From a virus (lineage: Duplodnaviria; Caudoviricetes): a stretch of 59,020 nucleotides of DNA. The DNA lies in the IMG/VR virus record IMGVR_UViG_3300034094_000170, positions 1 through 59,020 of that record. One strand, written 5' to 3'. The translations under genes and the position numbers were made by a program. Under the pieces are notes generated by a model. That model made no database searches. It saw nothing but the letters and a program-made list of their open reading frames with translations, and was not told where the DNA came from. Positions 13,705 through 56,890 of this stretch are shown here, in pieces; positions within the stretch are counted from its first letter, which is position 1, and every line of letters begins with the position of its first letter.

Positions 13705-15003
13705 ATGCAATCACTCAAATCAAATTTAATTTTTAATCCACAAGGAAATGATGATGTAAACCATCGGTCAATATGGAAAGGTGAAACCACAAATTTAATG
13801 CAATTAAATGATGTGCGTTATTCCTGGGCTGTTAGTTTGTGGAAACAAATGAGAGAGAATTTTTGGACAAGTGAAAAATTTGATGTCACTCAAGACATTA
13901 ACGATTATCAAAATTTAACACAGCATGAACAGAAAGGTTATGATGGGATACTATCATATTTGATATTTTTAGATTCAATTCAAACGGTCAATATACCACA
14001 TCTAAAAAGTGTTATAACAGCACCAGAAATAAGTCTATGTATGTCAGAACAAACATCTCAAGAAGCTTTACATTCACAATCATATCAATATCTTTTGGAA
14101 AGTATTGTCCCAACTGAAAAACGCAATATAATTTATGATTTTTGGAGGACTGACACATTGCTTTTTGAACGTTGTGAGTTTATATCTTCAATGTATCAAA
14201 AATTTGTTGACACATCAACTGAAGAATCTTATTTTGAGGCGTTGATGGCTAATTTTATTTTAGAAGGATTATATTTTTACTCTGGCTTCTGTTTCTTTTA
14301 TTCTCTTTCTTCTCGAATGTTAATGTCTGGTTCTGCTGATATTTTTCGTATGATTAACCGTTAATTTGTGGCGGCTTTTTACAGCAATGTAAATCGAAAA
14401 CCCCTCTAATTTAGGGGACATCTCAACTGAGACAATCCTAAGCCAATTTAATAATTTATATTATTAAAAGGTTCAACGACTAGCTGAGAAGCGTAGGGTC
14501 AAGTGACTCGAAACGGGGGGCAACCTTATGGGTTGGTGATATAGTCTATTCTAATAGGTGACTATTAGCAGTTTTAAAAAACGGGCAAAGATTAACGAAC
14601 TTTGTTGAATGTATAGGATGAATTATCTCACGTCCGGTTATACCAAAAAATCATACCTAAAGCTATGCAAACTTTTCCACATTCAATAGAGCGAATATAT
14701 GAAATGTTTGATAAAGCTGTAAAATATGAAATCCTTTGGGTTAACCATATTGTCGGCAATGAAATACTAGGAATCACTGAACAAAGCACAGAACAATACA
14801 TCAAATATTTAGCTAACATTCGATTAAAGTCAATTGGTTTACAACCGTTATATAATAAACCAATTTACTTTAAAAACTGTTATGCTCATCTTGAAAAAAT
14901 GGCAGATACAGGAAAAGATGCTAATGTAAAAGCTAACTTTTTTGATAGTGGTGTTACCAGTTATGTGATGTCATCTGGGGTGAGTGGTTGGGAAGAATTT
15001 TAA
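13705..15003 (+). CDS. nrdB: Ribonucleotide reductase class I beta subunit, two exons (13705-14361 + 14617-15003; 347 aa spliced)
   Basis: FLDSIQ, QEALHSQSY (radical Tyr), LEGLYFYSGF; splicing restores the conserved INR|DELSH in frame; C-terminal NFFD..VTSY. Confidence 0.93.
14362..14616 (+). ncRNA. Group I self-splicing intron, 255 nt, no homing endonuclease ORF
   Basis: 5' exon ends in U (AACCGT) and can pair with GCGGCT (P1, U.G); core elements AATCCTAAGCC, GTTCAACGACTA and GATATAGTCT; ends in G before GATGAA. Confidence 0.9.
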
Positions 15004-15010
15004 TTATTTG

Positions 15011-15167
15011 TGTTATAATGATAATATGGTTTTGTTATTAAAACCATTGAATCGAAACTATTGTGTCATTAATATCAATCCTTTTTATGGATTGTGAATT
15101 GAAATTTAGAGTTTAGTGAGCCTCCCACCAAAAAACCCCCTAACTTTTTAGTTTTTGGGGTTTTTTT
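15011..15167 (+). CRISPR. Short-spacer CRISPR-like mini-array 1, with promoter and terminator
   Basis: TGTTATAAT (15011-19); stem ATGGTTTT/AAAACCAT + TGAATCGAAAC; 17 nt; stem CAATCC/GGATTG + TGAATTGAAAT; terminator 15130-15167. Confidence 0.65.
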
Positions 15168-15326
15168 CTCTACATTATAAATGGTTTTAATGCTTGCTGT
15201 GTATAGGTTATAGTGTTCAAAAAAAAATACTTATTTAATATAACGATTAAAAAGGTGTGTTTTTGACCAACACTTAACACCACAACACTTTCCCACACTC
15301 GGTAGGGGGAGTTTAAAAATCAACAT

Positions 15327-18300
15327 TTAACATTTACCTTTATTTGCTGCAAGGTCATTCAGGACTTGCCTTGCATCACCAGTTGGGTCGTTGCTGACAA
15401 TCACCAGATTTTCAACGTTTACATTAGTGCCACCTCCACTTTCTTCAGATTTAGATACAGGTTTAGGTTGTTTTTTACTACTATCAACCGCTTTCTGTGC
15501 TGATTGTAATTCCTCTTGTAATTTTTGTAATGGTGTTTTAATTTGTTGTGGAGTAAAACCATCAGCACCAGTTGTTTTCAGCTTCCCAGATGCTAAATCA
15601 GCCGTTATTTTTGCAGCTTCTTCCCTAGCAATTTTAGCTTGTTCATAACCACCAGCCGTTGCTTGTTTGGCTGTTAAACCTGATGCAATTCTTTCTTTTT
15701 CAGCTTCATTATTCCATTTATTAATATAATCGTCAATTGCCGCATTAGCTTTTTGCAATCGTGATTCTTCTGCTAATTTATTTATATCGTTTTCGATTTT
15801 TTTCATTTTTTCTAAATCAGAATTTTGATTTTGATTATTGACGTTTTGATTACCATCAGAAACATTGCCATTGATATAAACATTAGTAGCCGTAACTTTC
15901 ATCGATTCAATTATTTCATCTTTAGCTTTTTTAGCTTTTGCATCTGTTGATGTTTTACCATAATCAGAAGTTGTCATACCCGATACAGGTTTACGGTTTC
16001 TGTCAGCTTCAGATAAATAAATTGGTTGAGCAGGTACACTATTATAAGTGACACCAGCATTTACACTAACACCAGCATTATAAGTGACACCACCTTTACC
16101 ACCTTTCTCACTATTTTTTTGTTGCTGTTCTTTAGCTGCTCTAGCTTGGTCTAATATTCTTTGTTGTTGTAAATTTTCGTTAGCTGCGGTTTGGTCAATG
16201 TTTAATTTTTGTTTTTCTAATTCTTGAATTTTGGCGACATTCTCTTTATCAGCTTGTACTGATTGTTCCTGTTGCTGTCTCAATCCCAAAACTTTTTCTA
16301 ATGCTGCCATTTCAGCACTACCAGCACCTCTAGCCTTAGCTTTTTCTATTTCAACTTGCGCTTCTAACGTTGCAATTTCAGCTAATGTTTCTTGACGCTT
16401 GATGTCAATATCTTGTTTTTGTTGAGCTATTTTTAATGTTTCACGTTCAATCTCTTGACGTTGTGCTAAAGATTTTAACTCTTGTTCATATAATTGTTGT
16501 TTAATTTGCTGCTTTTGAACTTCATTTTCTGATAGTTCAGCTAACTGCATTCTAAAATCTAATCGTTGTTTTTCAAGGTTAGAAACAGAATCATTTAATC
16601 CTGATTTTGCTGACTGTAAAGCTGATTGACGGTCAAGTTCAGCATTCTGTAAATCTAATTGTGAAGTTATAAATTCTAATTCAGCTTTTTCTTTTTCAAA
16701 TGATTTAGTTATTTTTTGGATAGCCAAATCCTGTAATTCAAGTTGACGCTGTTGGTCAATTTGTTCTAATTTAGCTTGCTGTTGAATATCAAGATTTTCT
16801 TTTTGTAACCCGTTTAAATTATCTGTTAATATTTTTTGTTCAGTGATACCAGCTAAATGATGACCCTGTATGATTACAAATTGTTCTAAATTATGTAATT
16901 CATTTTCTGATAAACCTTCTAATTTACCTTTCTCTAAATTGAGTTGCGCTTGCAATAATCCAGATTTAGCTTGTAATAACTGACGGTCTAATTCTATATT
17001 GTTTTGTTTTTGACTTAACTCCAATGAAACTTTTTGTGATTCATTCTGTCTTAAAATTTCTTTACGCTGTTGTAAATAAATTTCAGCTTTTAATTGTTCA
17101 ATTTTATTAAAGTCATTGCTCCTGTTAGCAAGCTCTAACTGAAAATCTAAACGTTGTTTATCTAATTCACCAGTTGACTGTAGTATTGTTTGCTGTGCAT
17201 CATATAACTTAGTTTGATTTTCAATTTCTTTTGTAGTTTTTTGAATTTCTAACTCTTGAATTTCTAAATATCTTTGACGCTCAAGATTAGCTAATGCTGA
17301 TTGCTGTTCAACACCAACTCTTTCAGTTTCATTTTGTTGTATAGCCTCAACATTGGTTAACTGTTCTTTAGATGATTTTAATTGTCTTTTAGCGATATCA
17401 ATATCCTGTTTAGATGCTTTATTTAATTCTAATTTTCTTAAATTGGCTTGAGCATCTAATATATCATTTTCAGCTTGGATTCTTTGTTGTTTATGGCTTA
17501 ACTCCAACGAATAACTTTGTGCTTTATTTTGTTCATTAAGAGCTTGTAATTGTAGCGAGTATGATGCAAATTTTAATACTTCTAACGCTTTTATATTATT
17601 AGATTTATTTGCAATTTCGATATTATAATCAACTTGAGATTTTAGAGCTTCACTCTGAGCTTTGTATACTTCACTATTAGAATTTGTTAACTGGATTTTT
17701 CTTTCCAGTTGTTTATTAATTATATCATTTTGATTTTTAGTAATTTCAACTTCTTTGGTTATTCTTTTTTCAGCCTCCTCTATTAATTGTAAATTTCTTG
17801 AACGTTTTGCATCTTTTTTCTGAGTCTCATTTTGAACAGTTAAATTATCTTTTTCTAATTTTTGAACTTCACCTAAATTTTTACGTTGTTCACTGACAAA
17901 ATTTACCTGTTGCTTACGAATATCAACTGTTTGTTGTGCTACAGATATTTCTTCAGCCGTTGCTTTATTTGCAATTAACTGATTAACTTGACTTTCAGCT
18001 TCTAACAATGCAATTTTAGCTTGCATATCAGAACGCTGCATTTCTAACCTTTGTTGAGCTTGGGTTAGTTCTAAAGATTTAGTTTGTAAATCTTGTTTGG
18101 CAGTCAGAGAAGTTAATTGGTTTTGATATATCTCAGCATTAATTTTTTCTTGTTTAGAAATATCACCAGATTTTTCAAATAATTGTTTTTGATATTCTAA
18201 TTGTTTATTTAATTCATCAGACTTACCAGTTGAAACCTGTTCTTTCAAATTAGTTTGTTGAACTTCAAAACCTTTACGTTCAACATAAAAACCTTTATCA

Positions 18301-41401: not shown

Positions 41402-42541
41402 TTAACCTAAAATTCGGCAAGCACCTTCAGGTCGAATGACAGCCGCACCAAACAAAATATCAAAAGTGAATAATGTTTGTTTATTTTCACGGGTGACTTC
41501 TAATCGCATTGTGATTTTAGTCATGTCATCAGTGAAAGTCTCAATCATGCTACCCGCAGGAATAACATCATTTAAAGGGCGAACTGCGAGAGCAAAAGCA
41601 TCACGATGAAAAGCCATATTAACAACATGGTCGCCAACAACAGTAATAGCTGAAGCGGCAGGAGCATCTTGTCTTAATGCAGGAGTAATTGGCCATGAAG
41701 TTGTAGTAGCATCTTTTCCAACAACATAGGGATAAGGGTCGCCAGCAATTGTAAAAACATCACCTTCAATTGGTGCTGCACTTGCTCCAGTTACGGTAAG
41801 AACTTTTACACCTTTTAAATTACTTGCTCCAGTCGTAGTAATTGTTCCGGCTGCGCCTGTTTCATGTGTCAAAACATTTTGAGACATAAACCAGTCAAAA
41901 CCCAATTTTCGACCGATAATTCCTTCTTTGATTGTTACATCAGTTCCGGCTTTGTCAGCATTTAAAAACTCAGGTAATGCAGTTGCGTTAGCCTCTGATT
42001 CAACATCTAATAAAATTCGACGGTCAGAAACAGGTGTTAATTGTCGGTTTAAGACTTTTCGAGCATCACGTCCAGCACCCATACCTTTATATACAGCAGG
42101 GGTTCCAGTGTTTTCTTGAAAAGGTGTGTTGCCAGCTAAACCAGCAATACCATAAACACCTTTATATAAACTTAAAAGGTATTTATCTACAGAATTTGCA
42201 AGGGATTTTGCAGCTTCAGCAACTTGCAAATTTTGATAACCATTCATTATTTCATAAATTTCTTTATCCGTTAAACGGAAAGCTTGATACTTCCATTGGT
42301 CAAGTTTAATCGGAATAAATTGAGGCGAAAGGTCTGCTGTATCAGGTGCGAGTTTAGAAGGAATAACATCTCTGGCTTCACCCATAGTGCTAGGGATAGG
42401 AACGTCAACAGATGAACCTTTTTGTCGAGCATCACTGTCAAAATTTCGATTGACTAGCAATGACATCACGGAGTTTTCACGGAACGCAACCATCCCACCG
42501 CTCAAAATTCTGGGGATTACAGCCTCAAGCAAATTAGCCAT
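41402..42541 (-). CDS. Major capsid protein (P22 coat-like)
   Basis: KGSSVDVPIP, LANSVDK, GIIGRKLGFDWFMSQN, NMAFHRDAFALAVRPL, FDILFGAAVIRPE. Confidence 0.85.
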   Translation of the reverse strand: MANLLEAVIPRILSGGMVAFRENSVMSLLVNRNFDSDARQKGSSVDVPIPSTMGEARDVIPSKLAPDTADLSPQFIPIKLDQWKYQAFRLTDKEIYEIMNGYQNLQVAEAAKSLANSVDKYLLSLYKGVYGIAGLAGNTPFQENTGTPAVYKGMGAGRDARKVLNRQLTPVSDRRILLDVESEANATALPEFLNADKAGTDVTIKEGIIGRKLGFDWFMSQNVLTHETGAAGTITTTGASNLKGVKVLTVTGASAAPIEGDVFTIAGDPYPYVVGKDATTTSWPITPALRQDAPAASAITVVGDHVVNMAFHRDAFALAVRPLNDVIPAGSMIETFTDDMTKITMRLEVTRENKQTLFTFDILFGAAVIRPEGACRILG

Positions 42542-42574
42542 AGTTAGTTTTTAATTTTTTAATTGCGGTTTTTT

Positions 42575-42675
42575 TCACGTCTGAGGAGAAAATTGAATCA
42601 CTCAATTTAAAACGTGATATTGACAAAAATATCTTTAGCTTTTCTGAATCACTCAGAAAATATGGCATCACGCCA
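42575..42675 (-). promoter_or_regulatory. Three tandem GUGAU-loop hairpins in the capsid 5' leader
   Basis: Minus strand: TGGC-GTGAT-GCCA, TTTTCTGA-GTGAT-TCAGAAAA, AATTGA-GTGAT-TCAATT; stems differ, loop is identical. Confidence 0.6.
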
Positions 42676-42816
42676 AACTGCATACAAAATTATAATAAAC
42701 AAAAATAAAACCGACTATTATAAAAATAATCGGTTTTTTTGAATCATGGAAAAAATAGTATTCTACCTTTCTTATGATTCAACTATTTAGAGGGTCTTTT
42801 TTTAAAATACCACTAA

Positions 42817-43605
42817 TTAACCTTGAATGATTGCTGTCCCCGCCGCCAGTTCAGCCATCGGAACTTGCCCCGACTGCACTTGTTTTCGAGTATAAACTTT
42901 TACTTGTTTACCGCCCACTGATGCAGTTTGGGGAGTCATACCACCACCTTTAGAATCGTTAATAGGTTCAAAAAGTGTACCTAAACTACCCTGTTTTAAT
43001 TCTTGAATTTTTTCACTTAGAGTTTTGGGACGACCTTCTGTATATTCAATTGAACCAACACGGTCAACAACACAAACTCTACCATCAACAATTTTCACCC
43101 GTCCACGCATTTGATTGATAACAACCTCTACTGGGTGAATGTCCTCAATTGAAACCTCAGTATTTTCAATGATTGCAGGTTTGCGCCCACCATTTTCAAA
43201 AAATGAATTTCTGATAGCATTTTCAATTTTTTCAGTACGCCACATTTCTTCCCATTTGTTTGCTTCAGCAAGGGCTTTTTGCTCGTTAGCCATGTGACGC
43301 TGTTTTAATTCGTCATAAGCACGTTTTTGTTCTAACTCTTGTTCTTCTTTACGTTTTGCTTCTTCTAATAATTTTTGGTATTTGTCAGGGTCAACATTTT
43401 TATGCTTTTCTAAAATTAAACGCTGTTCTTCTTCACGTTTTCTTGCATCTTTAAATTGTTTTTCCAAATTCTCGGCTCTTGCTCTTTCTTTTTGTAAAGT
43501 GGCAAGCAGTTTTTGGATGTCATCAGGTGTTGTTTCTGTTGTTGACTGTGAAACTTCTTCTGATTGACCAGTGGTAGAATCTAAATTTGTTTTGTCGGTT
43601 CCCAT
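42817..43605 (-). CDS. Capsid scaffolding protein
   Basis: Coiled coil (LQKER...VDPDKYQKL), LFEP..SKGGG near the C-terminus; directly upstream of the capsid gene. Confidence 0.75.
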   Translation of the reverse strand: MGTDKTNLDSTTGQSEEVSQSTTETTPDDIQKLLATLQKERARAENLEKQFKDARKREEEQRLILEKHKNVDPDKYQKLLEEAKRKEEQELEQKRAYDELKQRHMANEQKALAEANKWEEMWRTEKIENAIRNSFFENGGRKPAIIENTEVSIEDIHPVEVVINQMRGRVKIVDGRVCVVDRVGSIEYTEGRPKTLSEKIQELKQGSLGTLFEPINDSKGGGMTPQTASVGGKQVKVYTRKQVQSGQVPMAELAAGTAIIQG

Positions 43606-43659
43606 ATTTAGGTGACAATATTTAATACATGACTATTTAATTATCAACACTCAACCAAC

Positions 43660-45291
43660 ATGGTTTATTCTTTTTTTACTAATCAATCAATTGATAATAG
43701 CAACAACATAGAATTACCAAGCTATGAAAATCCATATTATAAATTAATGAAAAATAAATGGGCTTTTGTACTTGATATGTACAGAGGTAGGGAAGCGTGG
43801 TTATCTATAAATGATGATGGTTATTTTAATTTTGACCCTGCAAAAATCTCAAGATATCTTCCGTGCGAACAAGATGAACCAGCAGAAGAATATAAAAAAA
43901 GATTATCCCGAAGTTATTTTGAACGTTTTTTTGGGACAGCTATTGAAAACTTTTCTGGTTTTTTATCTTCATTCATTTTAAACAATGATGTTGATAAAAC
44001 AATTTTAGATAATATTGATGATGTTGATTTATTAGGAAATAATTTAGAGGTCTTTTTAAAAAATGCTGACACAAAGGCATTGAGAGATGAACATTGTTTT
44101 ATTTATGTCGAGTTTCCTAAAAAAAATGAAAATATAAAAACTGCTTACGATGAAAAAATATATAAATCAAGACCATATCTTGTTTTGATTGACTGTAGGG
44201 ATATTGTTAACGGGATTTTATCTGATGATAATAAAGAGATAATTCAATTGACAATAAAAGAAAAAATATCAGTCAAAGAGGGAAAATATGGTGTAAATGT
44301 CAAAACTAGATATAGAGTTTTGACACCTGGACATTATCAAGTTTTTGAGATTGGTGGTGAAAAAGATAATACATACCAAGTTGTTGTTGATGAAGGTGAC
44401 ACATCTCTAAATTTTATTCCGATTATACCGTATAGTTTATTTAATAAAGGTAGTATTGTTGAATATTTTGGTTGTGATGTAAACGAGGAAAGTTTAGAAA
44501 GTAAGCCTCCACTTTATGATTTAGCGGAATTAAATTTAAAACATTATCAAAAAACATCAGAAAAAGATGAGGTTATGCACAGATGTAATTTACCTGTATT
44601 GGTAATTAATGAATTACAACAAACCAGACGTAATGCTAATGAACCCTACCCGATTGTGTCTCTAGGGCCAAACACTTGTCTTTGGAATGTTGACGCTAAA
44701 TTTGTTGAGCCATCTGGTAGTGCTTTACAACAGACACAATTGGATATTGAAAAACTTGAAAAATCCATGCTTGACCGCACTCTTTCATTTTTGACAGGTA
44801 ATGAAATTGTGCGAACCGCAACAGAGGTTAATTTATTTTCTACACCTGTTGAATCTAATTTGTCAGCAATGGCACGGGCTAAACAAAGTGCTGTTGAAGT
44901 TATTTTTAGATATTGGGCAGCATACTATAAAAAACCTTATGGTGGGAGCATTAAAGTTGATGAGAGAATTTTAAAATCAACTATGGATTCTAACACATTT
45001 ACAATAATTGATAAAATATACGAAAGAGGCATAATCACAACTAAAACATATTTTCATATTTTACAGTCAGGTAAAATATTACCCAATGATTTTGTTATTG
45101 AAGACGAGTTAAAATTAGTAGAGGAAGACAGAAATAAAACTATAGCAGGACAAAACATAGATAAACTAGATGTTATTGATGATGAAGATAATGTAGATGT
45201 TAGCCAAAATAAAAACAGTAAATCTGTTGATGTTATGGTTAAAAAAGATGCAAAAATGCCAATGATAGATGAAACAAAAGATATTGATTAA
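43660..45291 (+). CDS. Portal protein (DUF4055-like)
   Basis: YLP.E.DE..EEYKKRL, RPYLVLI, IPII.Y, PPLYDLAELNLKHYQ..S, RTATE. Confidence 0.8.
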   Translation: MVYSFFTNQSIDNSNNIELPSYENPYYKLMKNKWAFVLDMYRGREAWLSINDDGYFNFDPAKISRYLPCEQDEPAEEYKKRLSRSYFERFFGTAIENFSGFLSSFILNNDVDKTILDNIDDVDLLGNNLEVFLKNADTKALRDEHCFIYVEFPKKNENIKTAYDEKIYKSRPYLVLIDCRDIVNGILSDDNKEIIQLTIKEKISVKEGKYGVNVKTRYRVLTPGHYQVFEIGGEKDNTYQVVVDEGDTSLNFIPIIPYSLFNKGSIVEYFGCDVNEESLESKPPLYDLAELNLKHYQKTSEKDEVMHRCNLPVLVINELQQTRRNANEPYPIVSLGPNTCLWNVDAKFVEPSGSALQQTQLDIEKLEKSMLDRTLSFLTGNEIVRTATEVNLFSTPVESNLSAMARAKQSAVEVIFRYWAAYYKKPYGGSIKVDERILKSTMDSNTFTIIDKIYERGIITTKTYFHILQSGKILPNDFVIEDELKLVEEDRNKTIAGQNIDKLDVIDDEDNVDVSQNKNSKSVDVMVKKDAKMPMIDETKDID

Positions 45292-45713: not shown

Positions 45714-45872
45714 ATTTCAATTCGCATCTCAATATTTTTTTAATATTGAGATGTTATCCTCATTTTTTACAATATTTCAATTTTCAATCCCTATTACTGA
45801 GTATTGTTACCCAAATATCAAAATATCGTTGCCTTATTTCAATTTTCAATCCCTATTAATTAATAGGGATTG
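45714..45872 (-). CRISPR. Short-spacer CRISPR-like mini-array 2, directly downstream of cas7
   Basis: Three stem + 11-nt handle units (AAAATTGAAAT twice, CGAATTGAAAT) separated by 29 and 20 nt. Confidence 0.7.
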
Positions 45873-45887
45873 TTTTAACTATTTCAA

Positions 45888-46748
45888 CTATTTGTCAACA
45901 CTCCAAAAACTTACACTATCTGGAGTATTATCGTAATCAATGGAAATATCATAATCGCTGATACTTCGAGGGATGTCAACATTTTTTTCAACTGACAACA
46001 TCTCAAACAATTTATGACTAGGATAATTACCCCATTTACTGTCATGGGTAAAAATATACAATCCTTGACAGTTCATTGAAGAACGGGCAGAGCTTTTATC
46101 AAATTCCCAACAATTAACAAGCGCATCCCAAAAAAGTTTTAAATCATCTTCAGAAACGTCGCCTTTATTCAAACCAGGATTGTAATGGATTTCAACCTTA
46201 AATAAACCATAAGGGATTAACTCTTTACGACCCATAGTTTTATTGTCCTTGCCCTCAGTTCCCTCAGTAGCGGCACATCGGGTAATTGTTGCTGAAATAG
46301 GCAATACAGGGTCAAACGAACGTCCCCAACTAACTTGTACTGGCCCCCAAACTTGTCCTGCTTTCCATCCAGTAGACAAAACGGCCCCAAACATCCGAAT
46401 ATCAAAATATCTTTGTCGTAGTAATGTCTGAACTTTTTCTTGTTCTTCTGGTGAACCTTCTTTTTTGTTACCTTTTTTGACACTAGGCTCAATCCCTAAA
46501 TCGGTGTAACCTTGGTCAATTTTGTTATTGAGGATACTACCTTCTTTAACAAAAATTTCATGGTTTCCAAGCATTTGAACATAGTTACGAATCTTGCGTT
46601 TAATACAAGCATCGGTCATTAAACCGTGTCGGGTTTCAGAATCGGTTCTTGGCTGATTTCCTGCGTCTGGGTCGCCATTAGGATTACCGTCAGTGCAATC
46701 AACTAATAAGATTGCATCATGTTTTTTGTTAGGGTCAAAGTGGTTCAT
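45888..46748 (-). CDS. cas7: Type I-C Cas7 (Csd2)
   Basis: GNPNGDPDAGNQPRTD, TDACIKRKIRNYV, FDIRMFGAV, GPVQ, TITRCA, TMGRK. Confidence 0.93.
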   Translation of the reverse strand: MNHFDPNKKHDAILLVDCTDGNPNGDPDAGNQPRTDSETRHGLMTDACIKRKIRNYVQMLGNHEIFVKEGSILNNKIDQGYTDLGIEPSVKKGNKKEGSPEEQEKVQTLLRQRYFDIRMFGAVLSTGWKAGQVWGPVQVSWGRSFDPVLPISATITRCAATEGTEGKDNKTMGRKELIPYGLFKVEIHYNPGLNKGDVSEDDLKLFWDALVNCWEFDKSSARSSMNCQGLYIFTHDSKWGNYPSHKLFEMLSVEKNVDIPRSISDYDISIDYDNTPDSVSFWSVDK

Positions 46749-46751: not shown

Positions 46752-47126
46752 TTATTCTTCCTCTTGTTTGTTTTCAGTGTTTTGTTTAGTGTAAAATTCA
46801 GCCCGTCGCTTTGCAAATCCTATGAAAAACAAAGATTTTTGACGGAGTGAAAAATTTTCAGGTAAGTTTTCAGGATTAAATTCTAAAAACTCGGAATCTA
46901 AACAGTTTTGGACGTAAATCGTATTTGTTGCCGATTGTAGATGGTGACAATAACAACCTTGATACAATCGGTCAAATACTTGAAAAGGTGTTGTTGAAAG
47001 TGTTTTAAGAGAACGCAACACATTAGTATCTTCATTGTTTCCTTGATTACGTCCTTTTATTTGTGCAACGTGCATCAAGAAAGCAATCCGACCTAATCGG
47101 TATGCAATATCATCATTTGTTTCCAT
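46752..47126 (-). CDS. cas11: Cas11c small subunit from an internal in-frame start in cas8c (124 aa)
   Basis: In-frame ATG (METNDDIAYRLGR) after A-rich AAAGAAATCAAA; internal translation of Cas11 is established for type I-C. Confidence 0.65.
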   Translation of the reverse strand: METNDDIAYRLGRIAFLMHVAQIKGRNQGNNEDTNVLRSLKTLSTTPFQVFDRLYQGCYCHHLQSATNTIYVQNCLDSEFLEFNPENLPENFSLRQKSLFFIGFAKRRAEFYTKQNTENKQEEE

Positions 47127-48449
47127 TTTGATTTCTTTGATTGTTTGGTTGAGATAGAGCAAAAGACCTTTTACTCTGACAGCAAGAGAATAACTAAAAA
47201 ACTTTAGATTTTCCTCGCTATGGCATTCGGCACAGATTCTATCAATTAGTTTTTGAGCATATTCATCTGGTAATGTTTTACCCAAAAGAGTGTAATAAAT
47301 CAAAGCTGTTTCCACTCTTTGAGTGTAATCACCCGCATCAAAAAAAGCAGCTTTAATCAATGCGTAAATGGGCAAAACTTTACCATCAAGTGATTGTTGG
47401 ATTTCAAGAAAACGTTTGACATTTTCAGCTATTTCATCGGGAGTAGTTTTGTTAATCCCATTGATAGCAATCCTTCCAGCATTACCCTTTAAAATACCAA
47501 GGTAAAACTCAGATGAATATGCTCTGGTGTTTGCTGAAGTTTTACCTCCATAAACACTTTTGAAAAGACCTGAGAATTTTATTGATTCAGGGTCATTCCA
47601 AAACTCATCATTTATTCCCTCCTGATTGACATTTCCCCAATAAACAAACATCTGCTTATTAAGGGTTTGGTGATGATATGGGGAGTTTATTAAGTAGTCA
47701 AGTCCACTTATCACCCCCCATGCTGTATCAATCCCTATAGGCGCATTGTCATTACCTTTAAATCCCCATCCCTGATAGGCAGGTTTATCAAAAGATGTGA
47801 TTGATGCTCCAGTGCTATTGCCACCAGGGATATTTTTTATTTTTTCAGGGAAAACACTCAAAATAATTGGTTGTTTTTCCCCAGTGATGATACAACGTTT
47901 ATCATTCCAATCATCTAAATCTAAACGGTCAAGATATTCAAACCGCCAAAACTCTTGAATTTTTGGAGTGTCAGAAATTAGTTTTGGTTGCTCATCATCT
48001 CCTGTTGTACAGAATGCAAACCTCAACCCTTCACCCATTTTTTTATTAGGAACAGGTTTGCATCCGATTTCTTTGAGATGATTTACAACATCTTTTGTGT
48101 TAACGCTTTCAAGATAAGATATAATTTTGGAAGTGTTAACGTCTAACGTCTTCTTGCAACATCTATGCAGCAACTCCAAATATGCTGCATATTTTTTTTT
48201 ATCCAAACCTAAAACGTATTCACCAACATCAACAATCAAGATAGGAACTGTCCCATTTCTACTCAGTGATGGCACAATCATCCGTTTACCCTGAGTGCTA
48301 AAAACTTTATCCTTTTTGATTCTCTCTGTTTTTAATAATGTGATGGAATTGTTATCAACATTAATCAAAACATCAACTTTTTGAGTGGAATAACCTACGG
48401 GTAATTGCGGGTTTAATGTTTTAGAAAAATCATACAATTCTTTTAGCAT
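46752..48449 (-). CDS. cas8c: Type I-C Cas8c (Csd1)
   Basis: CIITG, GASITSFDKPAY..WG, NAGRIAI, AYRLGR, FFIGF; lies between cas5 and cas7. Confidence 0.88.
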   Translation of the reverse strand: MLKELYDFSKTLNPQLPVGYSTQKVDVLINVDNNSITLLKTERIKKDKVFSTQGKRMIVPSLSRNGTVPILIVDVGEYVLGLDKKKYAAYLELLHRCCKKTLDVNTSKIISYLESVNTKDVVNHLKEIGCKPVPNKKMGEGLRFAFCTTGDDEQPKLISDTPKIQEFWRFEYLDRLDLDDWNDKRCIITGEKQPIILSVFPEKIKNIPGGNSTGASITSFDKPAYQGWGFKGNDNAPIGIDTAWGVISGLDYLINSPYHHQTLNKQMFVYWGNVNQEGINDEFWNDPESIKFSGLFKSVYGGKTSANTRAYSSEFYLGILKGNAGRIAINGINKTTPDEIAENVKRFLEIQQSLDGKVLPIYALIKAAFFDAGDYTQRVETALIYYTLLGKTLPDEYAQKLIDRICAECHSEENLKFFSYSLAVRVKGLLLYLNQTIKEIKMETNDDIAYRLGRIAFLMHVAQIKGRNQGNNEDTNVLRSLKTLSTTPFQVFDRLYQGCYCHHLQSATNTIYVQNCLDSEFLEFNPENLPENFSLRQKSLFFIGFAKRRAEFYTKQNTENKQEEE

Positions 48450-49090
48450 CGCACTACCCCATTTTTCATGATTGCTTCAAAATATTCAGGTTCAACATTA
48501 CCCTTTGTAATCTTTTTTTGTTGATGGTCAAACCATTGAAGCTTGCCTGTTTTACTAGGGTTAAAATTTATCTTTTTGAGAACTTGTCCAAAGTTAAACT
48601 CACCCAAAAGTTCGGGATGTACCTGTTCAGTACCATCAGGAAATTTAAAAGCACAAGCATACTCTTTAACACCCATACATGGTTGTTTGAAACAAGCACC
48701 TTGACTGATTCGCTTGTTTACGATGGCAAAATATTTATCAATTGGGTCTGTTGCCCTTTTAGTCAATTCCATGCCAAAATCAATGATGTAAGCAGGGTTT
48801 TTAAGAACAACAAAATTGCGCTGTGAACGGTCGTCACTGATGATGTAATGTTCTTTGTCGTAACTACTGGTAACGATTTTACTCTTACCCATATTACGAA
48901 AAAAAGAAGCGTATCTGATTGGATTCAGAACTGTTATACTGTTGACCGTATACTCGATTTCCGGTTTCCAGAAAATCGCCTTTAGGATTCCCTCTGCTGC
49001 ACTAGGAGTGAGAAAAGGATATGAAAATGGGTCAGCTTTTGTTTCGGGTTTTGTGAATAAACCATACTCGCCCCACACTTTTAATTGCAT
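48443..49090 (-). CDS. cas5: Type I-C Cas5 (Cas5d, crRNA-processing)
   Basis: KVWGEYGLFTKPE...SYPFLTPSAAEGILKAIFWKP, VLNPIRY, GACFKQPCMGVKEY. Confidence 0.93.
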   Translation of the reverse strand: MQLKVWGEYGLFTKPETKADPFSYPFLTPSAAEGILKAIFWKPEIEYTVNSITVLNPIRYASFFRNMGKSKIVTSSYDKEHYIISDDRSQRNFVVLKNPAYIIDFGMELTKRATDPIDKYFAIVNKRISQGACFKQPCMGVKEYACAFKFPDGTEQVHPELLGEFNFGQVLKKINFNPSKTGKLQWFDHQQKKITKGNVEPEYFEAIMKNGVVRC

Positions 49091-49304
49091 AGGTTTATAT
49101 TTTTAATTCAGTATTTCAATTCGGTTGTTTGCTCTTACTGAATTAAATATACCAATAAAAAGCTAGTTGTAAACATATTTTAGTTTTGATTTTTATATCA
49201 AATAACAAAAAACTTATAAGTTATAATCATATATTTTAATGTTGAAAAATCACATATTTAAGTTAGGATTATCAATTATCTATGTCAAAATTTAGGAAAC
49301 AAAA

Positions 49305-51389
49305 ATGGAATTACACGCCAGGAGATTTATAGTTAATGGTAAATTTATTACACAAGATTTGATAGAGCATCTTAAAGGTGTTGCCAACAAATCAAGTGAT
49401 AAATTTAAAAATATTTCAGTTGATTTAAAAACATTAGCTTTTTATGCAGGGCTATTACATGACGTTGGAAAAGCTAAAAAATCATGGCAAAAATATATGT
49501 TTAAAAAATCGTGGGAAAAACATCTAACAAAAAAATCAGATAAAAAAAAATCAAAAGTTGAAATGGTTTTCCACTCATCAGAGGGTGCTAGAGCTATCAT
49601 GGAACTGTCAGGTGATGACTACCACCCGCTTGCATGGATTATTCAAGCGCATCACACAGAGTTAAAAAACCAAAGTGATTTAGGAAGTGATTATTTTATT
49701 GAAAATTCTAAACATTGGAAAACTTGCCTTGACCGTGTTTTTCCTGGGTTTGATATCAATAAAATTCCAAAATTAAAATTAAATATTTTAAAAAAAGAGT
49801 TGGCAATCAGGATGTTGTATTCAGTTTTAGTTGATTCTGATAGGCTTGATGCTCAAGAATTTGAAGAAAGATATTATAAAAACGTTGTTACACATAAACC
49901 ATCTATCTTGACTGTCTGTAATATATGGTCAAATATACCAGTACCACCACCGGAAAACACTTTGGTATCGGTTGAGCGTAAATATTTTAGAGATATTGTC
50001 AGTGGTTATATCAAAGATAAAAAAACCTGTTACCGATTAATTGGTGCTACTGGAGTAGGAAAAACACTTACATCACTCAACTTTGCATTAGAGCATTGCA
50101 AATATCATAATATGGATGGATTGATTTATGTTGCTCCGTACAAGTCAATCATTGACCAAACTGCTAAGATATATCGTGAATTGTTGAGTGATGATGCTGT
50201 TTTGGAACATCACTCCGATTTTGTACCTAAACCTAAAGATGAAAATGATTATAAGTTATCTTGCCAAAGGTGGGATTATCCGGTGATAGTTACTACTGCG
50301 GTACAATTTTTTGAGTCAATATTTTCTAACAAATCTACCCGATGTCGCAAGCTTCAAGGATTACTCAATAAGGTGATTTTGATTGATGAATACCAAACTA
50401 TTCCACCTAATTTAATTGAATCAATTGCCGATATTTTAAAAAATTTAGTTGAAGATTTTGGATGCACTGTAGTTTTAATGTCAGCTACAGCACCAAATTT
50501 ATCGGGTTTTAATTTACCCCATGTTGACATGATTCCACAATCAGAAGTAAATCGTCAATTTGAAGTTTTGCAGCGTTGTGAGTATGAATTTAAGGAGTTT
50601 GATTATCAAGAAATAGCTAATTTTCCTGGTAAAAAACTTGTAATCGTAAACACCACGAAAACAGCATTAAATTATTTTCAATATTTTGATAGTGTCCAAC
50701 CGGGACAATGGCTACACTTATCATCTCGGATGTGTGTTTCACATCGTAAAGAAGTGATTAAAAAATTAAAAACTGGTAAATATAATTGTGTCAGCACTCA
50801 GATTGTGGAAGCAGGGATTGATATTGATTACCCCACAGTTTTTACAGAAGAATGTCCTTTTGATTCATTGATTCAACGTGGTGGACGTTGTAATCGTGAA
50901 GGTAAATTACCGTCAATGGGTAAAGTTTTTATCATCCCTTGCAGCAATTATCCTGGTCAAGAATACAGACAGTTGGCAATTACAACATCTAATTATATTT
51001 TAAACCATAAAGGCTTTAAACCTGATGAATTGGTTGGCTTATTGAGTAAATATTTTAGTGTGAGAAATTCTAATATTTCATCTGAAATTCAAGATTTAAG
51101 AAAGAATTTAATGTTTAAAGATGTCAACGATAAATTCAAAGTGATTGAGGATGGTATGCCTAATGTTTTATGTGAATGGGGTGATGGAATACAATTAATT
51201 AATCAGTTAAAAAATAAACCAAAATTGACACCTAATGAATGGAAACAATTACAACAATTTACTGCAACAATTTTACCCAAGGATGATAATTTTAAAAATG
51301 TTGTAGAATATGATAATGGTATGAGAGTTTGGAATGATGGATATGATGATAATTTTGGAGTATATATTCAAACTTCATATATTATTTAA
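49305..51389 (+). CDS. cas3: Cas3 HD nuclease-helicase
   Basis: EHL, LLHDVGK, HS, HH, LVDSD (HD domain); ATGVGKT, IDEYQ, MSAT, STQIVEAGIDID, QRGGRCNREG (helicase). Confidence 0.93.
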   Translation: MELHARRFIVNGKFITQDLIEHLKGVANKSSDKFKNISVDLKTLAFYAGLLHDVGKAKKSWQKYMFKKSWEKHLTKKSDKKKSKVEMVFHSSEGARAIMELSGDDYHPLAWIIQAHHTELKNQSDLGSDYFIENSKHWKTCLDRVFPGFDINKIPKLKLNILKKELAIRMLYSVLVDSDRLDAQEFEERYYKNVVTHKPSILTVCNIWSNIPVPPPENTLVSVERKYFRDIVSGYIKDKKTCYRLIGATGVGKTLTSLNFALEHCKYHNMDGLIYVAPYKSIIDQTAKIYRELLSDDAVLEHHSDFVPKPKDENDYKLSCQRWDYPVIVTTAVQFFESIFSNKSTRCRKLQGLLNKVILIDEYQTIPPNLIESIADILKNLVEDFGCTVVLMSATAPNLSGFNLPHVDMIPQSEVNRQFEVLQRCEYEFKEFDYQEIANFPGKKLVIVNTTKTALNYFQYFDSVQPGQWLHLSSRMCVSHRKEVIKKLKTGKYNCVSTQIVEAGIDIDYPTVFTEECPFDSLIQRGGRCNREGKLPSMGKVFIIPCSNYPGQEYRQLAITTSNYILNHKGFKPDELVGLLSKYFSVRNSNISSEIQDLRKNLMFKDVNDKFKVIEDGMPNVLCEWGDGIQLINQLKNKPKLTPNEWKQLQQFTATILPKDDNFKNVVEYDNGMRVWNDGYDDNFGVYIQTSYII

Positions 51390-51642: not shown

Positions 51643-52119
51643 GTATCAACTCCTAGCAATGGGAGTTGCGAATTGAAACATATCGGTGTTCGAGTTGTTC
51701 CCCCTTGCTCACCTGTATCAACTCCTAGCAATGGGAGTTGCGAATTGAAACATCACCTATGAGCAAAAAATCGATAATGCTATTCAAGTATCAACTCCTA
51801 GCAATGGGAGTTGCGAATTGAAACGCGTGGCTTGGCTTGCCTTGCTTGGCTGTGAGAGAAAAGTATCAACTCCTAGCAATGGGAGTTGCGAATTGAAACA
51901 AGCCTTCCTGAACACTGCCAACAGCCCCAATGTAAGTATCAACTCCTAGCAATGGGAGTTGCAAATTGAAACGATTTGTTCTATGTTGGTAATACTATCA
52001 GCATTTAGCAGTATCAACTCCTAGCAATGGGAGTTGCGAATTGAAATAATTATCCGACGCGATACCAATGATGAAATATTTGGTATCAACTCCTAGCAAT
52101 GGGAGTTGCGAATTGAAAT
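51643..52119 (+). CRISPR. CRISPR array: 7 x 37-nt repeat GTATCAACTCCTAGCAATGGGAGTTGCGAATTGAAAC, 6 spacers of 35-38 nt
   Basis: Repeats start at 51643, 51715, 51788, 51863, 51936, 52011 and 52083; stem CAACTCC/GGAGTTG followed by an 11-nt handle. Confidence 0.97.
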
Positions 52120-52232
52120 CATGAATTGGTCATTAACAATCTCGTTTTTATCGAGATTGAGAATTGAAACCAATCATGGCTTGCAGACCATTTCTAAACA
52201 ACAATTAGAAATGAGAATTAAAATACGATAAT
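52120..52232 (+). CRISPR. Short-spacer extension of the array with two sequence-divergent repeats (mini-array 3)
   Basis: 17 nt, then CAATCTCG/CGAGATTG + AGAATTGAAAC; 18 nt, then CATTTCTAA/TTAGAAATG + AGAATTAAAAT. Confidence 0.75.
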
Positions 52233-53567
52233 TTGACACTCCCCGCTCTAAAGAGACGGGGATTCTTGGTTCACAGAGATTACTTGCTTAGACAGAATTG
52301 CTTCTGAAAAAGTAGAGGTATTCTCTCCCCAAGCGTTTATTGGGTCGAGCCCAAAGGTTCCGGTATGCCCTACCGTACTTAGTCCCCTTTTAAGGATGTT
52401 GATTGCGGCGTTTTCATCCCTATCCAAAACACATCCACACTTGCACTGATGGGTTCTAGTCGATAAAGATTTTTTGACAGTTTCACCACAGTTTGAACAG
52501 TTTTGGCTTGTATAGTTCGGTGCGACAGCAATCGTTATCTTGCCAAATTTAACCCCAAAATACTCTATCCATTCCCGAAACTGATACCAGGCCGCATCAT
52601 TTATCGATTTAGCTAGACAATGATTCTTGACTAAGTTCTTAACTCTTAAATCCTCGTAGGCTATCACATCGCTAGAGTGAACTACGCACCTTGCTAATTT
52701 CACAGCAAAGTCTTGACGTTGCCTACTTACTTTAAGATGAGCTTTAGCTAATCTTTGTCTAGCTTTTTGACGATTTTTACTTCCCTTTTTCTTTTTAGAT
52801 AATCGCCTTTGAAGTCGTTTTAATCGTTTCTCAGACTTTCTCAAGAATTGAGGATTATCAACCTTGTTGCCATTGTTATCTGTATAGAAAGAAGCCAAAC
52901 CTACATCTAAGCCAATACACTTACCTGATGGTTTAACATCTTCTTTAACGTCACAAGAAAGGACAAATTGACAATAATAACCGTCCGCTCTCCGAATCAA
53001 CCTAACCCGTTTAATATCGGATTCTTGAAAGTACCCTAAATCCCAAGTTCCTACCAACTTAAGAACACCAATGTTTTTCTTGTCAGTGAACTTAACAGTT
53101 TTCGGGCTAAGAAGCTTCCATCCTGATTGTTTGTATTCAACAGAGCGAGATTTTTTAAATTGAGGATACCCCTTTTTGCCTGATACTTTACGTTTACAGT
53201 TGTCGTAAAAACGACTAATTGAACTCCAAGCACGTTCAGCACTTGCCTGTCTAGCAGTTGAATTAAGTTCATCGGCAAATTTAAAGTCCTGAGCTAATTC
53301 TTTAGAATATCGGTATAAATCGTTCTTACCCGTACCTTTTGTATCCATCCATAACCTTACACATTTGTTACGGATGAATTGAGCAGTACGAATAGCATCG
53401 TCTATGGCTTGATACTGTTGAGTTTTAGCTTTAACTTTAAACTCTAAGACAAACATTTTACGCAGGGGGGACTTAGACAAAATCAGTATAGCACAATAAA
53501 AGTTAAGTTAACAAGCTATAGTTTAAAAAGCCGTCCTAAAAGGACGGGGCTTTAACCCAAAATTTCG
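52233..53567 (-). mobile_element. IS200/IS605-family element with tnpB only (IS1341-like)
   Basis: Right-end hairpin GAATCCCCGTCTCTTTAGAGCGGGGAGTGTCAA; left-end hairpin near 53530-53550, preceded by TTTAC; left boundary approximate. Confidence 0.8.
52248..53456 (-). CDS. tnpB: TnpB RNA-guided endonuclease
   Basis: RuvC motifs GLDVG, YEDL and DRDENAA; zinc finger CSNC...CKC; likely ATG at 53456. Confidence 0.92.
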   Translation of the reverse strand: MFVLEFKVKAKTQQYQAIDDAIRTAQFIRNKCVRLWMDTKGTGKNDLYRYSKELAQDFKFADELNSTARQASAERAWSSISRFYDNCKRKVSGKKGYPQFKKSRSVEYKQSGWKLLSPKTVKFTDKKNIGVLKLVGTWDLGYFQESDIKRVRLIRRADGYYCQFVLSCDVKEDVKPSGKCIGLDVGLASFYTDNNGNKVDNPQFLRKSEKRLKRLQRRLSKKKKGSKNRQKARQRLAKAHLKVSRQRQDFAVKLARCVVHSSDVIAYEDLRVKNLVKNHCLAKSINDAAWYQFREWIEYFGVKFGKITIAVAPNYTSQNCSNCGETVKKSLSTRTHQCKCGCVLDRDENAAINILKRGLSTVGHTGTFGLDPINAWGENTSTFSEAILSKQVISVNQESPSL

Positions 53568-54336: not shown

Positions 54337-54558
54337 ATGAGTTATGTAGCAGATAGAGATTGGCTAGAAAGTTTGAAAGTTGGTGATAAAGTTGTCGTAA
54401 AAGACAACAAAAACGCCATAAAACCAATCAACGCAATAATAACAAAGGTTACAAAAAAACTCATTTATGCAAACTATAACGAGTTTTCAAGACAGTCAGG
54501 AAAGATTAATACCAACAAGAGCGGAAGCAATTATTATTACCTGAGCAAAAGAGAGTGA
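54337..54558 (+). CDS. Small hypothetical protein (SH3-like LKVGDKVVV)
   Basis: AAGGA Shine-Dalgarno-like element; 73 aa. Confidence 0.55.
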   Translation: MSYVADRDWLESLKVGDKVVVKDNKNAIKPINAIITKVTKKLIYANYNEFSRQSGKINTNKSGSNYYYLSKRE

Positions 54559-54598
54559 ATTGACACTCCCCGCTCTGAAGAGACGGGGATTCTACATT

Positions 54599-55780
54599 CT
54601 ACGTCAGAATTTGCTCAACCAGGTTTTCACCAAGAAGAGTAGAGACTCCAACTCCTGTAGCGTTAATTCGGGAATGCCCTTCCCTATTTTTAGCTAAATT
54701 CAGAATGTTAATTGCAGCGTTTGTATCTCTGTGCAACTCACATCCACAAGTACAAACATGGGTGCGAGTTGATAGAGATTTTTTCACAATTACCCCACAA
54801 TTAGAACATTTCTGTGAAGTGTAATGGGGTGGAACTGGTATTGCCAATTTATCAAATTTAGCTGCAAAATATTCTATCCATTGTCGGAACAAATACCAAC
54901 TGGCATCACTAATTGATTTAGCTAAACAGTGGTTTTTAACTAAATTCTTAACACTTAAATCTTCGTAGGCTACTACATCGTTAGATGTGCATACGTTACG
55001 CGCTAGTTTTTTAGCGTGTTCATTCCGTTGCCTGCTTACTTTTAAGTGTTTTTTAGCGTAAACTTTTCTGGCTTTCCGTCTTCCTGATGAACCTTTAACC
55101 TTTTTATAGATTTGTCTCTGAGATTTTTTAATCGACGTTTCCGCCTTTCTTAGAAACTTGGGATTTGGTTCTTGATACCCGTTAGAGTCTGTATAGAAAG
55201 ATTCTATTCCAACATCCAGTCCGATTTCCTTTCCGGTTTTCGGTTGAACATCAGTGACGGTAATATTCAGGCAAAATTGACAGTAATATCCATCAGCGCG
55301 ACGAATTAAACGAATCCGTTTAATATCTTTGACGTTGTAAGTATGGATATCCCATTTTCCTAAAAGTTTAAGTTCACCAATACCTTTTTTGTCAGTTATG
55401 GTAATTCTTCTTTTAGTGGGATGCAATGACCAACCCGATGTTTTATATTCAACAGAACGACAATCTTTCTGAAATCTAGGAAATCCTTTCTTTCCAGAAA
55501 CCTTTTTCTTACAATTTTCGTAAAAACGAGAAATTGCCGACCATGCTCGTTCCGCAGCAGCTTGTACTGCCATTGAATTTAAGTCTTTGACAAAATCGAA
55601 TTGTGAACGAAGTTCTGTAGAATACTTGTTTAAAGCAAATCGATTAATTTTGGTATCTTTAGGTGCGTCCATCCAATACCGAATAGACTTGTTTCTAATA
55701 AACTGTACCGTTTTAATCGCCTCATCAATCGCTTTGTACTGATGAGGTTTTGCTTTGATTTTGTATTCTATAACTATCAT
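54599..55780 (-). CDS. tnpB: TnpB RNA-guided endonuclease
   Basis: GLDVG, YEDL, HRDTNAA; CSNC...CTC. Confidence 0.92.
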   Translation of the reverse strand: MIVIEYKIKAKPHQYKAIDEAIKTVQFIRNKSIRYWMDAPKDTKINRFALNKYSTELRSQFDFVKDLNSMAVQAAAERAWSAISRFYENCKKKVSGKKGFPRFQKDCRSVEYKTSGWSLHPTKRRITITDKKGIGELKLLGKWDIHTYNVKDIKRIRLIRRADGYYCQFCLNITVTDVQPKTGKEIGLDVGIESFYTDSNGYQEPNPKFLRKAETSIKKSQRQIYKKVKGSSGRRKARKVYAKKHLKVSRQRNEHAKKLARNVCTSNDVVAYEDLSVKNLVKNHCLAKSISDASWYLFRQWIEYFAAKFDKLAIPVPPHYTSQKCSNCGVIVKKSLSTRTHVCTCGCELHRDTNAAINILNLAKNREGHSRINATGVGVSTLLGENLVEQILT

Positions 55781-56875: not shown

Positions 56876-56890
56876 AAATGAGTAAATAAA

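Follow-up and report, generated by a model that had tools for sequence, protein, structure and literature searches.

A candidate short-guide crRNA-like locus downstream of nrdB in a phage that encodes its own CRISPR-Cas machinery of type I-C

Introduction

The solitary repeats and mini-arrays that phages carry in imitation of clustered regularly interspaced short palindromic repeat (CRISPR) arrays are currently read as devices for hijacking or jamming the CRISPR-associated (Cas) proteins of the host. Among them are the Racr elements, phage CRISPR-repeat mimics of which the type I-C form RacrIC1 has been validated experimentally, according to the part of that report consulted here (PMC10651486). 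Here we describe a locus directly downstream of nrdB in the Caudoviricetes record IMGVR_UViG_3300034094_000170, of which a stretch of 59,020 nucleotides (nt) was analysed and is called the window throughout; the record is rated 54% complete. The locus (15011-15167) combines a promoter-like motif, two degenerate repeat-like units, two short guides and a terminator-like hairpin. In this phage, the genome supplies the matching Cas proteins, and no type I-C system was seen in 17 genomes of the probable host genus, Microcystis. Judged from its sequence, the locus is an orphan member of the phage's own type I-C repeat family and consists of two layers. Our preferred, if tentative, reading is that it would be processed by the phage Cas5c into short-guide RNAs resembling CRISPR RNA (crRNA), with which the phage's own Cascade would bind DNA only.

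Like a Racr as described in that part of the report, the locus is a repeat mimic in a phage genome, directly behind a promoter-like motif and far from cas genes (PMC10651486). Its conserved core and the allele of a related phage contig (G001) fit the single-unit Racr form, to which the window allele adds a second unit and a short guide. The partners differ, since Racrs, as far as the same part goes, mimic host repeats, whereas the cognate system here is the phage's own and type I-C was found in 0/17 Microcystis genomes. Inhibition by the nrdB locus is also only a candidate function, whereas RacrIC1 has been validated.

Viral Cracr RNAs are described, in the portion of the source used here, as having a median pseudo-spacer of 19 nt for type I-F and as forming arrays of two to three units, nine of type I-C (bioRxiv 10.1101/2024.10.29.618823). 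The nrdB locus shares with them its phage-borne position, degenerate repeats, short pseudo-spacers and stacked units. By the same portion of that preprint, however, Cracrs need at least nine matches next to the protospacer-adjacent motif (PAM) in a host cas or creT promoter, which were not found for the locus guides in the sequences searched, and they reprogram host Cas proteins, whereas Cas is phage-encoded here.

Spacers below canonical length have been reported for mini-arrays (bioRxiv 10.1101/2023.03.03.530964), and CreR and CreA RNAs are thought to direct Cascade binding without cutting (bioRxiv 10.1101/2023.03.10.532045; 10.1101/2023.03.03.530964), in both cases by the excerpts available to us. 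As in those systems, two repeat-like sequences surround a shortened spacer (17 nt here against a canonical 39-42). In the same excerpts CreR and CreA are found within the cas locus or adjacent to it, and the promoter that they match belongs to cas8 or a toxin; the nrdB locus lies 30.7 kb from cas7, and none of the window's promoters is matched by its guides, the cas5c/cas3 intergenic region included. In location, two other clusters of the window (45714-45872 and 52120-52224) fit CreR and CreA better. Because the defining promoter complementarity was searched for and not found, we assign the locus to none of CreR, CreA and Cracr.

Virus-borne mini-CRISPR arrays have also been implicated in inter-viral conflict, by work cited in the portion seen of bioRxiv 10.1101/2023.03.03.530964. 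The nrdB locus resembles them as a small viral array with no adaptation module nearby, in a phage whose main array has spacers resembling a related phage. Inter-viral mini-arrays reportedly carry full-length spacers that match other viruses, whereas the locus guides measure 17 and ~24 nt and have no match in G001.

Results

Anatomy of the locus

The end of nrdB (stop codon 15001-15003) and the end of a convergent giant gene (15327) are separated by a gap of 323 nt. The plus strand of this gap carries an extended -10 promoter-like motif, TGTTATAAT (TGT plus TATAAT; 15011-15019, TATAAT at 15014-15019), and a transcript starting 7 nt 3' of it would begin with the first base of hairpin 1. This hairpin (15026-15047, +; ATGGTTTT, loop GTTATT, AAAACCAT; stem 8-9 bp) starts 22 nt after the nrdB stop and is directly followed by an 11-nt handle, TGAATCGAAAC (15048-15058, +). 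Unit 1 reads as stem, T and then GAATCGAAAC, which agrees with the array handle GAATTGAAAC at 9/10 positions. Guide 1, TATTGTGTCATTAATAT (15059-15075, +), spans 17 nt, counted like every guide here from the end of the handle to the next stem. It leads into hairpin 2 (15076-15094, +; CAATCC, loop TTTTTAT, GGATTG; stem 6 bp), directly 3' of which lies handle 2, TGAATTGAAAT (15095-15105, +); in this unit, stem and T are followed by GAATTGAAAT, a 10/10 match to the handle of the last two canonical repeats. The predicted Cas5c cuts fall between 15047 and 15048 in unit 1 and between 15094 and 15095 in unit 2. Candidate guide 2, TTAGAGTTTAGTGAGCCTCCCACC (15106-15129, +), extends for 24 nt up to the stem of a G+C-cored, terminator-like hairpin (AAAAAACCCC...GGGGTTTTTT(T) / AAAAAACCCC...GGGGTTTTTTT; 15130-15167, either strand). 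With an A-run 5' and a T-run 3', this hairpin is usable from both strands, and it could equally end the convergent gene, which encodes 6835 amino acids.

An earlier, sequence-only reading of the window had placed the extended -10, the two hairpins with their handles and a terminator at these positions, and the features described are all there. It had counted the terminator as the unit's own. The T-run hairpin exists, although it may just as well serve the giant gene, and a rule-based terminator scan made no call at the locus, where the loop is above the rule's 8-nt maximum. A rule-based sigma-70 scan called no plus-strand promoter at the locus, the -35 element being missing, and the TGNTATRAT motif is not rare in the AT-rich window (17 observed against 8.8 expected). 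The RNA from 15026 to 15167 (142 nt) is predicted to fold into exactly the three hairpins named above, with a minimum free energy of -32.9 kcal/mol (z = -3.17), an energy equalled in 0/200 shuffles.

Both units belong to the type I-C repeat family of the phage

The window encodes a type I-C effector, with cas7 (Cas7/Csd2; 45888..46748, -), cas8c (46752..48449, -), cas5c (48443..49090, -; TIGR01876, 101.5 bits against a cut-off of 85) and cas3 (49305..51389, +) all recognised by NCBIfam. Cas5c also matches the solved type I-C Cas5 chains 3KG4, 3VZI, 7KHA and 8DEX (E 1e-34 to 1e-29), and no Cas1 was found in the window, which comes from an incomplete record. The main array (51643..52119, +) comprises seven repeats, GTATCAACTCCTAGCAATGGGAGTTGCGAATTGAAAC/T, and six spacers of 35-38 nt, with the handle CGAATTGAAAC/T. 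Two trailer modules follow on the same strand (52120..52224). The first consists of a 17-nt guide (52120-52136) and the variant unit CAATCTCG/CGAGATTG, and the second of an 18-nt guide and the variant unit CATTTCTAA/TTAGAAATG.

The window has 14 copies of the handle motif GAATYGAAAY where 1.44 would be expected, a count reached in 0/100 shuffles. Among all sites with at most one mismatch to the handle, 15/36, including both locus units, are preceded by a stem of 6 bp or more whose last base lies exactly 1 nt upstream; a comparable stem was present at 3.9% of 20,000 random positions. These 15 sites are the seven canonical repeats, the two locus units and six further variant units, which lie in the main-array tail (52137-52170 and 52189-52224, +), at 56765-56799 and 56818-56852 (+), and just downstream of cas7 (45872-45836 and 45753-45714, -). 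One handle is common to eight distinct hairpin sequences, and 7/8 of these begin with CA and end with TG. Unit 2 has this CA...TG stem base, and unit 1 has AT...AT, both in the window and in G001. The repeat-like units of the sequence-only reading are true relatives of the contig's type I-C repeat.

The locus lies 30.7 kb from cas7 and ~36 kb from the main array. As three other clusters of non-canonical units occur near the cas genes, it is one of four rather than unique; the earlier description of a stand-alone mini-array 30 kb from the cas genes was right about the distance and needs qualifying as to its isolation.

Alleles agree only as far as the first handle

Contig G001 of IMG/VR, 64.5 kb long and with a completeness rating of 68%, shares synteny with positions 82-20804 of the window at 69-83% nucleotide identity, and the genes flanking the locus are 72-83% identical. 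The contig breaks off within the giant gene, which leaves any cas region unsampled. Its nrdB is intronless, encoding 347 amino acids without interruption, and is separated from the giant gene by ~68 nt without a terminator-like hairpin. This short gap contains TGTTATGAT, then a hairpin, ATAGTTTT/AAAGCTAT, at a spacing equal to that of the window, and then the exact-consensus handle CGAATTGAAAC. Between the two versions of hairpin 1, one pair changes from G-C to A-T on both sides and one from T-A to T-G, and 4/6 loop bases differ. For the stem covariation in related phages that the sequence-only reading had proposed as a check, G001 supplies one compensatory exchange, G-C to A-T, at a preserved -10 and hairpin 1 spacing. 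Homology stops exactly after handle 1, leaving 15059-15315 without a counterpart; the G001 allele is a single repeat behind a -10, with no spacer and no second repeat.

A third allele, on a contig from run X19, follows the window sequence to 15058, continues with 67 other letters and resumes at 15328, a substitution that spans 15059-15327 of the window (269 nt, against the 257-nt gap in G001). The differences listed for it lie at 14979-15025 (nine in the flanks) and none in 15026-15058, with 3/12 unplaced. Run X8 and metagenome locus L021 carry the allele of the window with an A-run 2 nt shorter, and in X8 the 43 nt of the terminator region occur in a different sequence context (loose ends 15125 and 15167). 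In a more distant relative, whose NrdB C-terminus is 88% identical, nrdB is followed by an ordinary hairpin, and a unit is missing from this position. As the alleles agree only to handle 1, the conserved object consists of the -10, hairpin 1 and handle 1. The complete transcription unit of ~145 nt that had been proposed does not hold up as one conserved unit, since only promoter, hairpin 1 and handle 1 are common to the alleles.

Searches for further copies used several probes. The pattern of -10 plus handle gave six loci among the metagenome contigs, of which L021 is a near-identical copy of the window and four were judged to be chance matches, at least three of them in apparent coding sequence. 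In IMG/VR it gave G001 and two others, one of which (L024) has a length and match position equal to those of the chance locus L020. A 17-mer of unit 2 had five loci in IMG/VR, read as chance because they lie partly in apparent coding sequence and show no hairpin-and-handle unit. Nothing was recovered with blastn of 14570-15700 against INPHARED, with the phage Cas7 protein in IMG/VR or with an 18-mer of the main repeat in IMG/VR (0 matches), and a profile of the giant protein's C-terminus gave 595 pattern stretches in the metagenome contigs, none of them confirmed.

One locus on an unrelated metagenome contig (L018, 3439-3487) has TGTTATAAT, a hairpin of 5-6 bp (GTTTC/GAAAC) and then GAATTGAAAC, in a search whose pattern fixed the -10 and the handle and left the hairpin free. 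The site is apparently intergenic (no open reading frame (ORF) of at least 60 amino acids), and may be another, unrelated solitary unit.

Guide 1 and unit 2 have a paralogue in the main-array trailer

The segment specific to the window allele (15059-15315, 257 nt) contains guide 1, unit 2, guide 2 and the terminator-like hairpin. Part of it, guide 1 with unit 2 (15060-15104), aligns with the trailer module behind the last canonical repeat (52124-52169), the shared string being ATTG(T)GTCATTAA...CAATC...TTTTTAT...GATTG.GAATTGAAA; the 257-nt segment has no further homologue elsewhere in the window. For the spacer alone, the similarity between guide 1 and the guide at 52120-52136 was reached by 4/5000 shuffles. 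Hairpin 2 and the unit at 52137-52159 have an equal stem base (CAATC/GATTG) and an equal loop, and the trailer unit is two bp longer. The stem thus shrank symmetrically, from 8 bp to 6 bp, which indicates that pairing was kept through divergence. Together, the breakpoints at the handle and the paralogy point to repeat-mediated recombination between the main-array tail and a solitary unit at nrdB. The earlier argument that the locus is no product of main-array decay is right in that, ~36 kb away, it is not a decayed array end, but its independence is only partial, given the trailer paralogue.

Guide lengths and spacer targets

Guide lengths in the window fall into discrete classes. The canonical intervals measure 39-42 nt (6/6 main spacers), and the non-canonical ones 17 (guide 1), 17, 18 and 18 nt, with 20 nt for the third cas7-proximal guide; the classes correspond to about seven and three 6-nt steps, respectively, and guide 1 belongs to the short one (17-20 nt). 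The guide core shared with the trailer paralogue gave no target in the window when scanned at one mismatch, and neither did guide 2 at up to three mismatches in four Microcystis genomes.

Two main-array spacers resemble G001. Spacer 4 (51900-51935) agrees at 27/36 positions with a site near 8007(-) (0/300 shuffles), and spacer 6 (52048-52082) at 26/35 with one near 54711(-) (1/300 shuffles). Both sites are preceded by TT, and the window's own homologue of the spacer 6 site is more diverged (21/35). With 2/6 spacers well above chance, the main array is apparently aimed at related phages, which therefore seem to employ type I-C against one another. When every sixth base was left free, a search of IMG/VR with main spacer 5 and one of the GTDB genomes with main spacer 4 gave 0 matches. 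Compared with Microcystis, the array region had weak matches only, including a recurrent one of 28 nt in a host coding region; its matches to Staphylococcus phages in INPHARED were judged to be chance.

The probable host

Several Microcystis genomes have chromosomal copies of a TnpB with 98-99% identity to the one encoded at 52248..53480(-), and on this basis the host is probably Microcystis. Runs from at least 14 studies contain the phage stretch; most of the studies concern freshwater or lakes, and one concerns wastewater. None of 17 Microcystis species genomes had a match to the phage Cas7, and the handle occurs in Microcystis genomes at control-level frequency and outside arrays, the inspected instances appearing to be coding. 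Types I-A, I-B, I-D, III-A and III-B are the Microcystis CRISPR types listed in the part of PMC11855584 consulted. An abundant host repeat ending in CCCTATTAGGGATTGAAAC was found in 14/17 genomes, with up to 174 copies on one strand. As no type I-C system was seen in the 17 genomes, the only known partners of the locus units are the phage's own Cas proteins.

Interpretation

A possible short-guide locus for the phage's own Cascade

Both units are likely Cas5c substrates, given their anatomy, the shared handle, the pairing kept in two independent comparisons and the presence of a cognate cas5c; from substrates of such a kind, crRNA-like RNAs that carry an 11-nt handle are likely to arise. In the literature, regulatory crRNA-like RNAs are marked by short guides in combination with degenerate repeats, which is why a Cas5c-processed, binding-only locus is the reading that we prefer. 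Its core would be the extended -10, hairpin 1 and the 11-nt handle, a promoter-driven solitary repeat right after nrdB. To this core, recombination at the handle most likely added a trailer-type module in the window allele (the 17-nt guide plus variant repeat 2), followed by the 24-nt stretch and the T-run hairpin. Transcription would start at ~15026, and the phage Cas5c would cut both hairpins at their 3' base, behind 15047 and 15094. The expected products are two crRNA-like RNAs with an 11-nt 5' handle each, RNA 1 having the 17-nt guide capped by hairpin 2 and RNA 2 a guide of ~24 nt capped by the terminator hairpin. Guides of about half the canonical length would assemble a Cascade with fewer Cas7 subunits that binds DNA and probably does not license Cas3, and by analogy with CreR, CreA and viral Cracr RNAs, both RNAs may act as binders or silencers rather than cutters.

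Several observations weigh against this interpretation. When all pseudo-spacers and main spacers were compared with the 59-kb window and with 64 kb of G001, neither guide 1 nor guide 2 had a target in either; the best PAM-proximal runs in window and G001 were 8-10 nt, none with a TTC PAM or in a promoter. At up to one mismatch, both guide 1 and the first 17 nt of guide 2 matched 0/17 Microcystis genomes, and 15004-15330 found no target in INPHARED, with one 33-nt chance match only. These negatives cover a 54%-complete record, with rival phages unsampled. The guides are also the part that is not conserved, being missing in G001 and different in X19, so that a guide-independent function of the core fits better. 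The likeness of guide 1 to its paralogue lies in the 3' part and not at the PAM-proximal end, which argues for common descent rather than seed selection. Unit 1 is the most degenerate of all units, lacking the CA...TG stem base of the other seven hairpin types and having a T-to-C change in its handle. Conservation and covariation are drawn from two to three alleles only. Finally, of the four runs compared, all of them as contigs, the only true RNA run (X20) covers no more of this phage than 14617-14770, part of nrdB exon 2; a second piece from it (14956-15003) has seven differences and dissimilar flanks, and is probably the nrdB of another organism.

Alternative explanations

The strongest rival, which we regard as possible but rather unlikely, is that the locus acts as an RNA decoy, a solitary Racr-like repeat unit in which promoter, hairpin 1 and handle would give an abundant repeat RNA that ties up Cas5c and Cas7. 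Its target would most plausibly be the type I-C system of a related phage that competes for a cell infected by both; a guide would be unnecessary, and unit 2 would be merely a second decoy. The alleles suit this explanation, as the part conserved in all three is exactly promoter, repeat and handle, with the downstream part missing or different, and the G001 form is a single repeat right behind the -10. A third related phage contig (G019) has two solitary units resembling the I-D-type repeat of the host, and an inter-phage use of type I-C, as suggested by the 2/6 main spacers that resemble G001, would give a decoy its purpose. However, the carrier itself encodes the cognate Cascade and Cas3 and would blunt its own system too, and no type I-C of the host is there to be inhibited (0/17 Microcystis genomes). 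The G001 contig, at 68% completeness, ends inside the giant gene before any cas region, and it is difficult to imagine the other short-guide modules as decoys, given their position within or next to the array and cas operon of the phage itself.

A slightly weaker contender would make the locus a functionless relic, left over from an exchange between the main-array trailer and a stray repeat at nrdB, its -10 and terminator serving the flanking genes or nothing at all. Every allele breakpoint does fall exactly at the end of handle 1, guide 1 and unit 2 copy the trailer module, no guide targets were found in the sequences searched and unit 1 is the most degenerate; an extended -10 motif is also common in an AT-rich contig, and a hairpin with an A-run and a T-run could just end the 6835-amino-acid gene. 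What speaks against a mere relic is the preservation of pairing in both comparisons (the G-C to A-T change in G001, the loss of two pairs in unit 2), the exact spacing from -10 to stem in G001, and the X19 allele, in which 0 listed differences fall in 15026-15058 against nine in the flanks (3/12 unplaced). We consider it very improbable that the unit serves Cas5c-dependent formation of an mRNA end, whereby cleavage would give the nrdB mRNA a protected 3' hairpin end and keep nrdB apart from antisense read-through into the giant gene that converges on it. In favour of this, the stretch from the nrdB stop to unit 1 has no terminator, G001 keeps the unit despite a gap of ~68 nt without a terminator-like hairpin, and the handle-like CCGAATTGAAAT is also found in the cas5c 5' leader. 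Against this, the conserved -10 is placed for a start at the stem, which argues for a transcript of its own, no precedent was found in the literature examined, and the relative with the 88% identical NrdB C-terminus has an ordinary hairpin and no unit.

Possible significance

The binding-only reading can be extended to a more speculative proposal, itself doubtful, in which guide length would set two modes of one Cascade. Spacers of 35-38 nt would engage Cas3 against related phages, and the dispersed 17-20-nt modules would serve binding only, as a phage-encoded silencing network directed at host or rival-phage genes. The promoter and repeat at nrdB would be a docking site where guide cassettes are swapped at the handle, a form of adaptation without Cas1-Cas2. 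The short-guide units form a discrete size class, and their stems have diversified yet are always paired. If they are loaded into Cascade, they would provide a compact natural case of one effector for cutting and silencing, and would show that recombination at the handle can renew the content of an array even where no adaptation module takes part. In a probable Microcystis phage, this would be relevant to bloom ecology and to phage-against-phage competition.

Other repeat-like units and neighbouring features

Right after the cas7 stop, the minus strand has a cluster of three units (45714-45872), of which units 1 and 2 carry TAGGGATTGAAAA. This is a 12/13 match to the 3' end of the abundant Microcystis repeat CCCTATTAGGGATTGAAAC, joined to the phage handle (..ATTGAAAATTGAAAT), and the cluster may imitate two repeats at once, the I-D-type one of the host and the I-C one of the phage. 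The I-D repeat used for the Microcystis comparison is the one given in a table of PMC11855584, within the part of that source consulted. The two solitary units of G019, TTCCTnTTAATGCCTATCAGGAATTGAAAC, lie 15 kb apart (L122, 6875-6884(-), and L123, 22002-22011(+)), one behind a TATAAA box; by their resemblance to the Microcystis I-D-type repeat they are candidate Racr-like decoys against the host. A Microcystis chromosome (G006) has a solitary copy of the host repeat, GTTCCAATTAATCTTAATCCCTATTAGGGATTGAAAC, behind a TATAAT-like box (L124, ~1049090-1049130); the large array that is listed for this chromosome's genome (2814787-2821873) is ~1.77 Mb away.

A further mini-array (56737-56925, +) stands behind an ORF of 71 amino acids and a copy of TGTTATAAT at 56474-56482. 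It has a degenerate handle and the 18-nt guide AGATGAGCGACTAACTAA twice, each time followed by the hairpin CAATACATAA/TTATGTATTG, and these are succeeded by a truncated unit, by another, diverged guide copy and finally by a terminator hairpin. Within the cas5c 5' leader (49091-49150, -), the handle-like CCGAATTGAAAT occupies the loop of a 9-bp hairpin, AATTCAGTA/TACTGAATT, ~20 nt upstream of the start codon, where it could be a candidate binding site of Cas5c or Cascade for autoregulation.

Both exons of nrdB match Pfam Ribonuc_red_sm, and the intron that splits the gene (14352-14568) is a group I intron (Rfam RF00028, 96.2 bits). The convergent ORF of 6835 amino acids (15327-35834, -) has many internal repeat families and a sub-threshold Pfam match only, over its last 599 residues; its C-terminus is 72-77% identical in G001. 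Within the allele-specific segment, a Cys-rich ORF of 31 amino acids (15231-15326, -) begins right at the giant-gene stop (TAAATG), and a Pfam search with the small minus-strand ORFs 15231..15326 and 15170..15298 returned no family.

The cas operon adjoins a P22-like coat gene (41402..42541, -) and a DUF4055 gene taken as the portal (43660..45291, +), so that 41402-45291 is an unusual neighbourhood for a CRISPR-Cas locus. Two TnpB genes lie at 52248-53480(-) and 54599-55780(-), and the first element abuts the last degenerate array unit. The sequence at 52225-52258 recurs at 54552-54585 (28/34), these stretches probably being the ends of the TnpB elements or omega-RNA regions.

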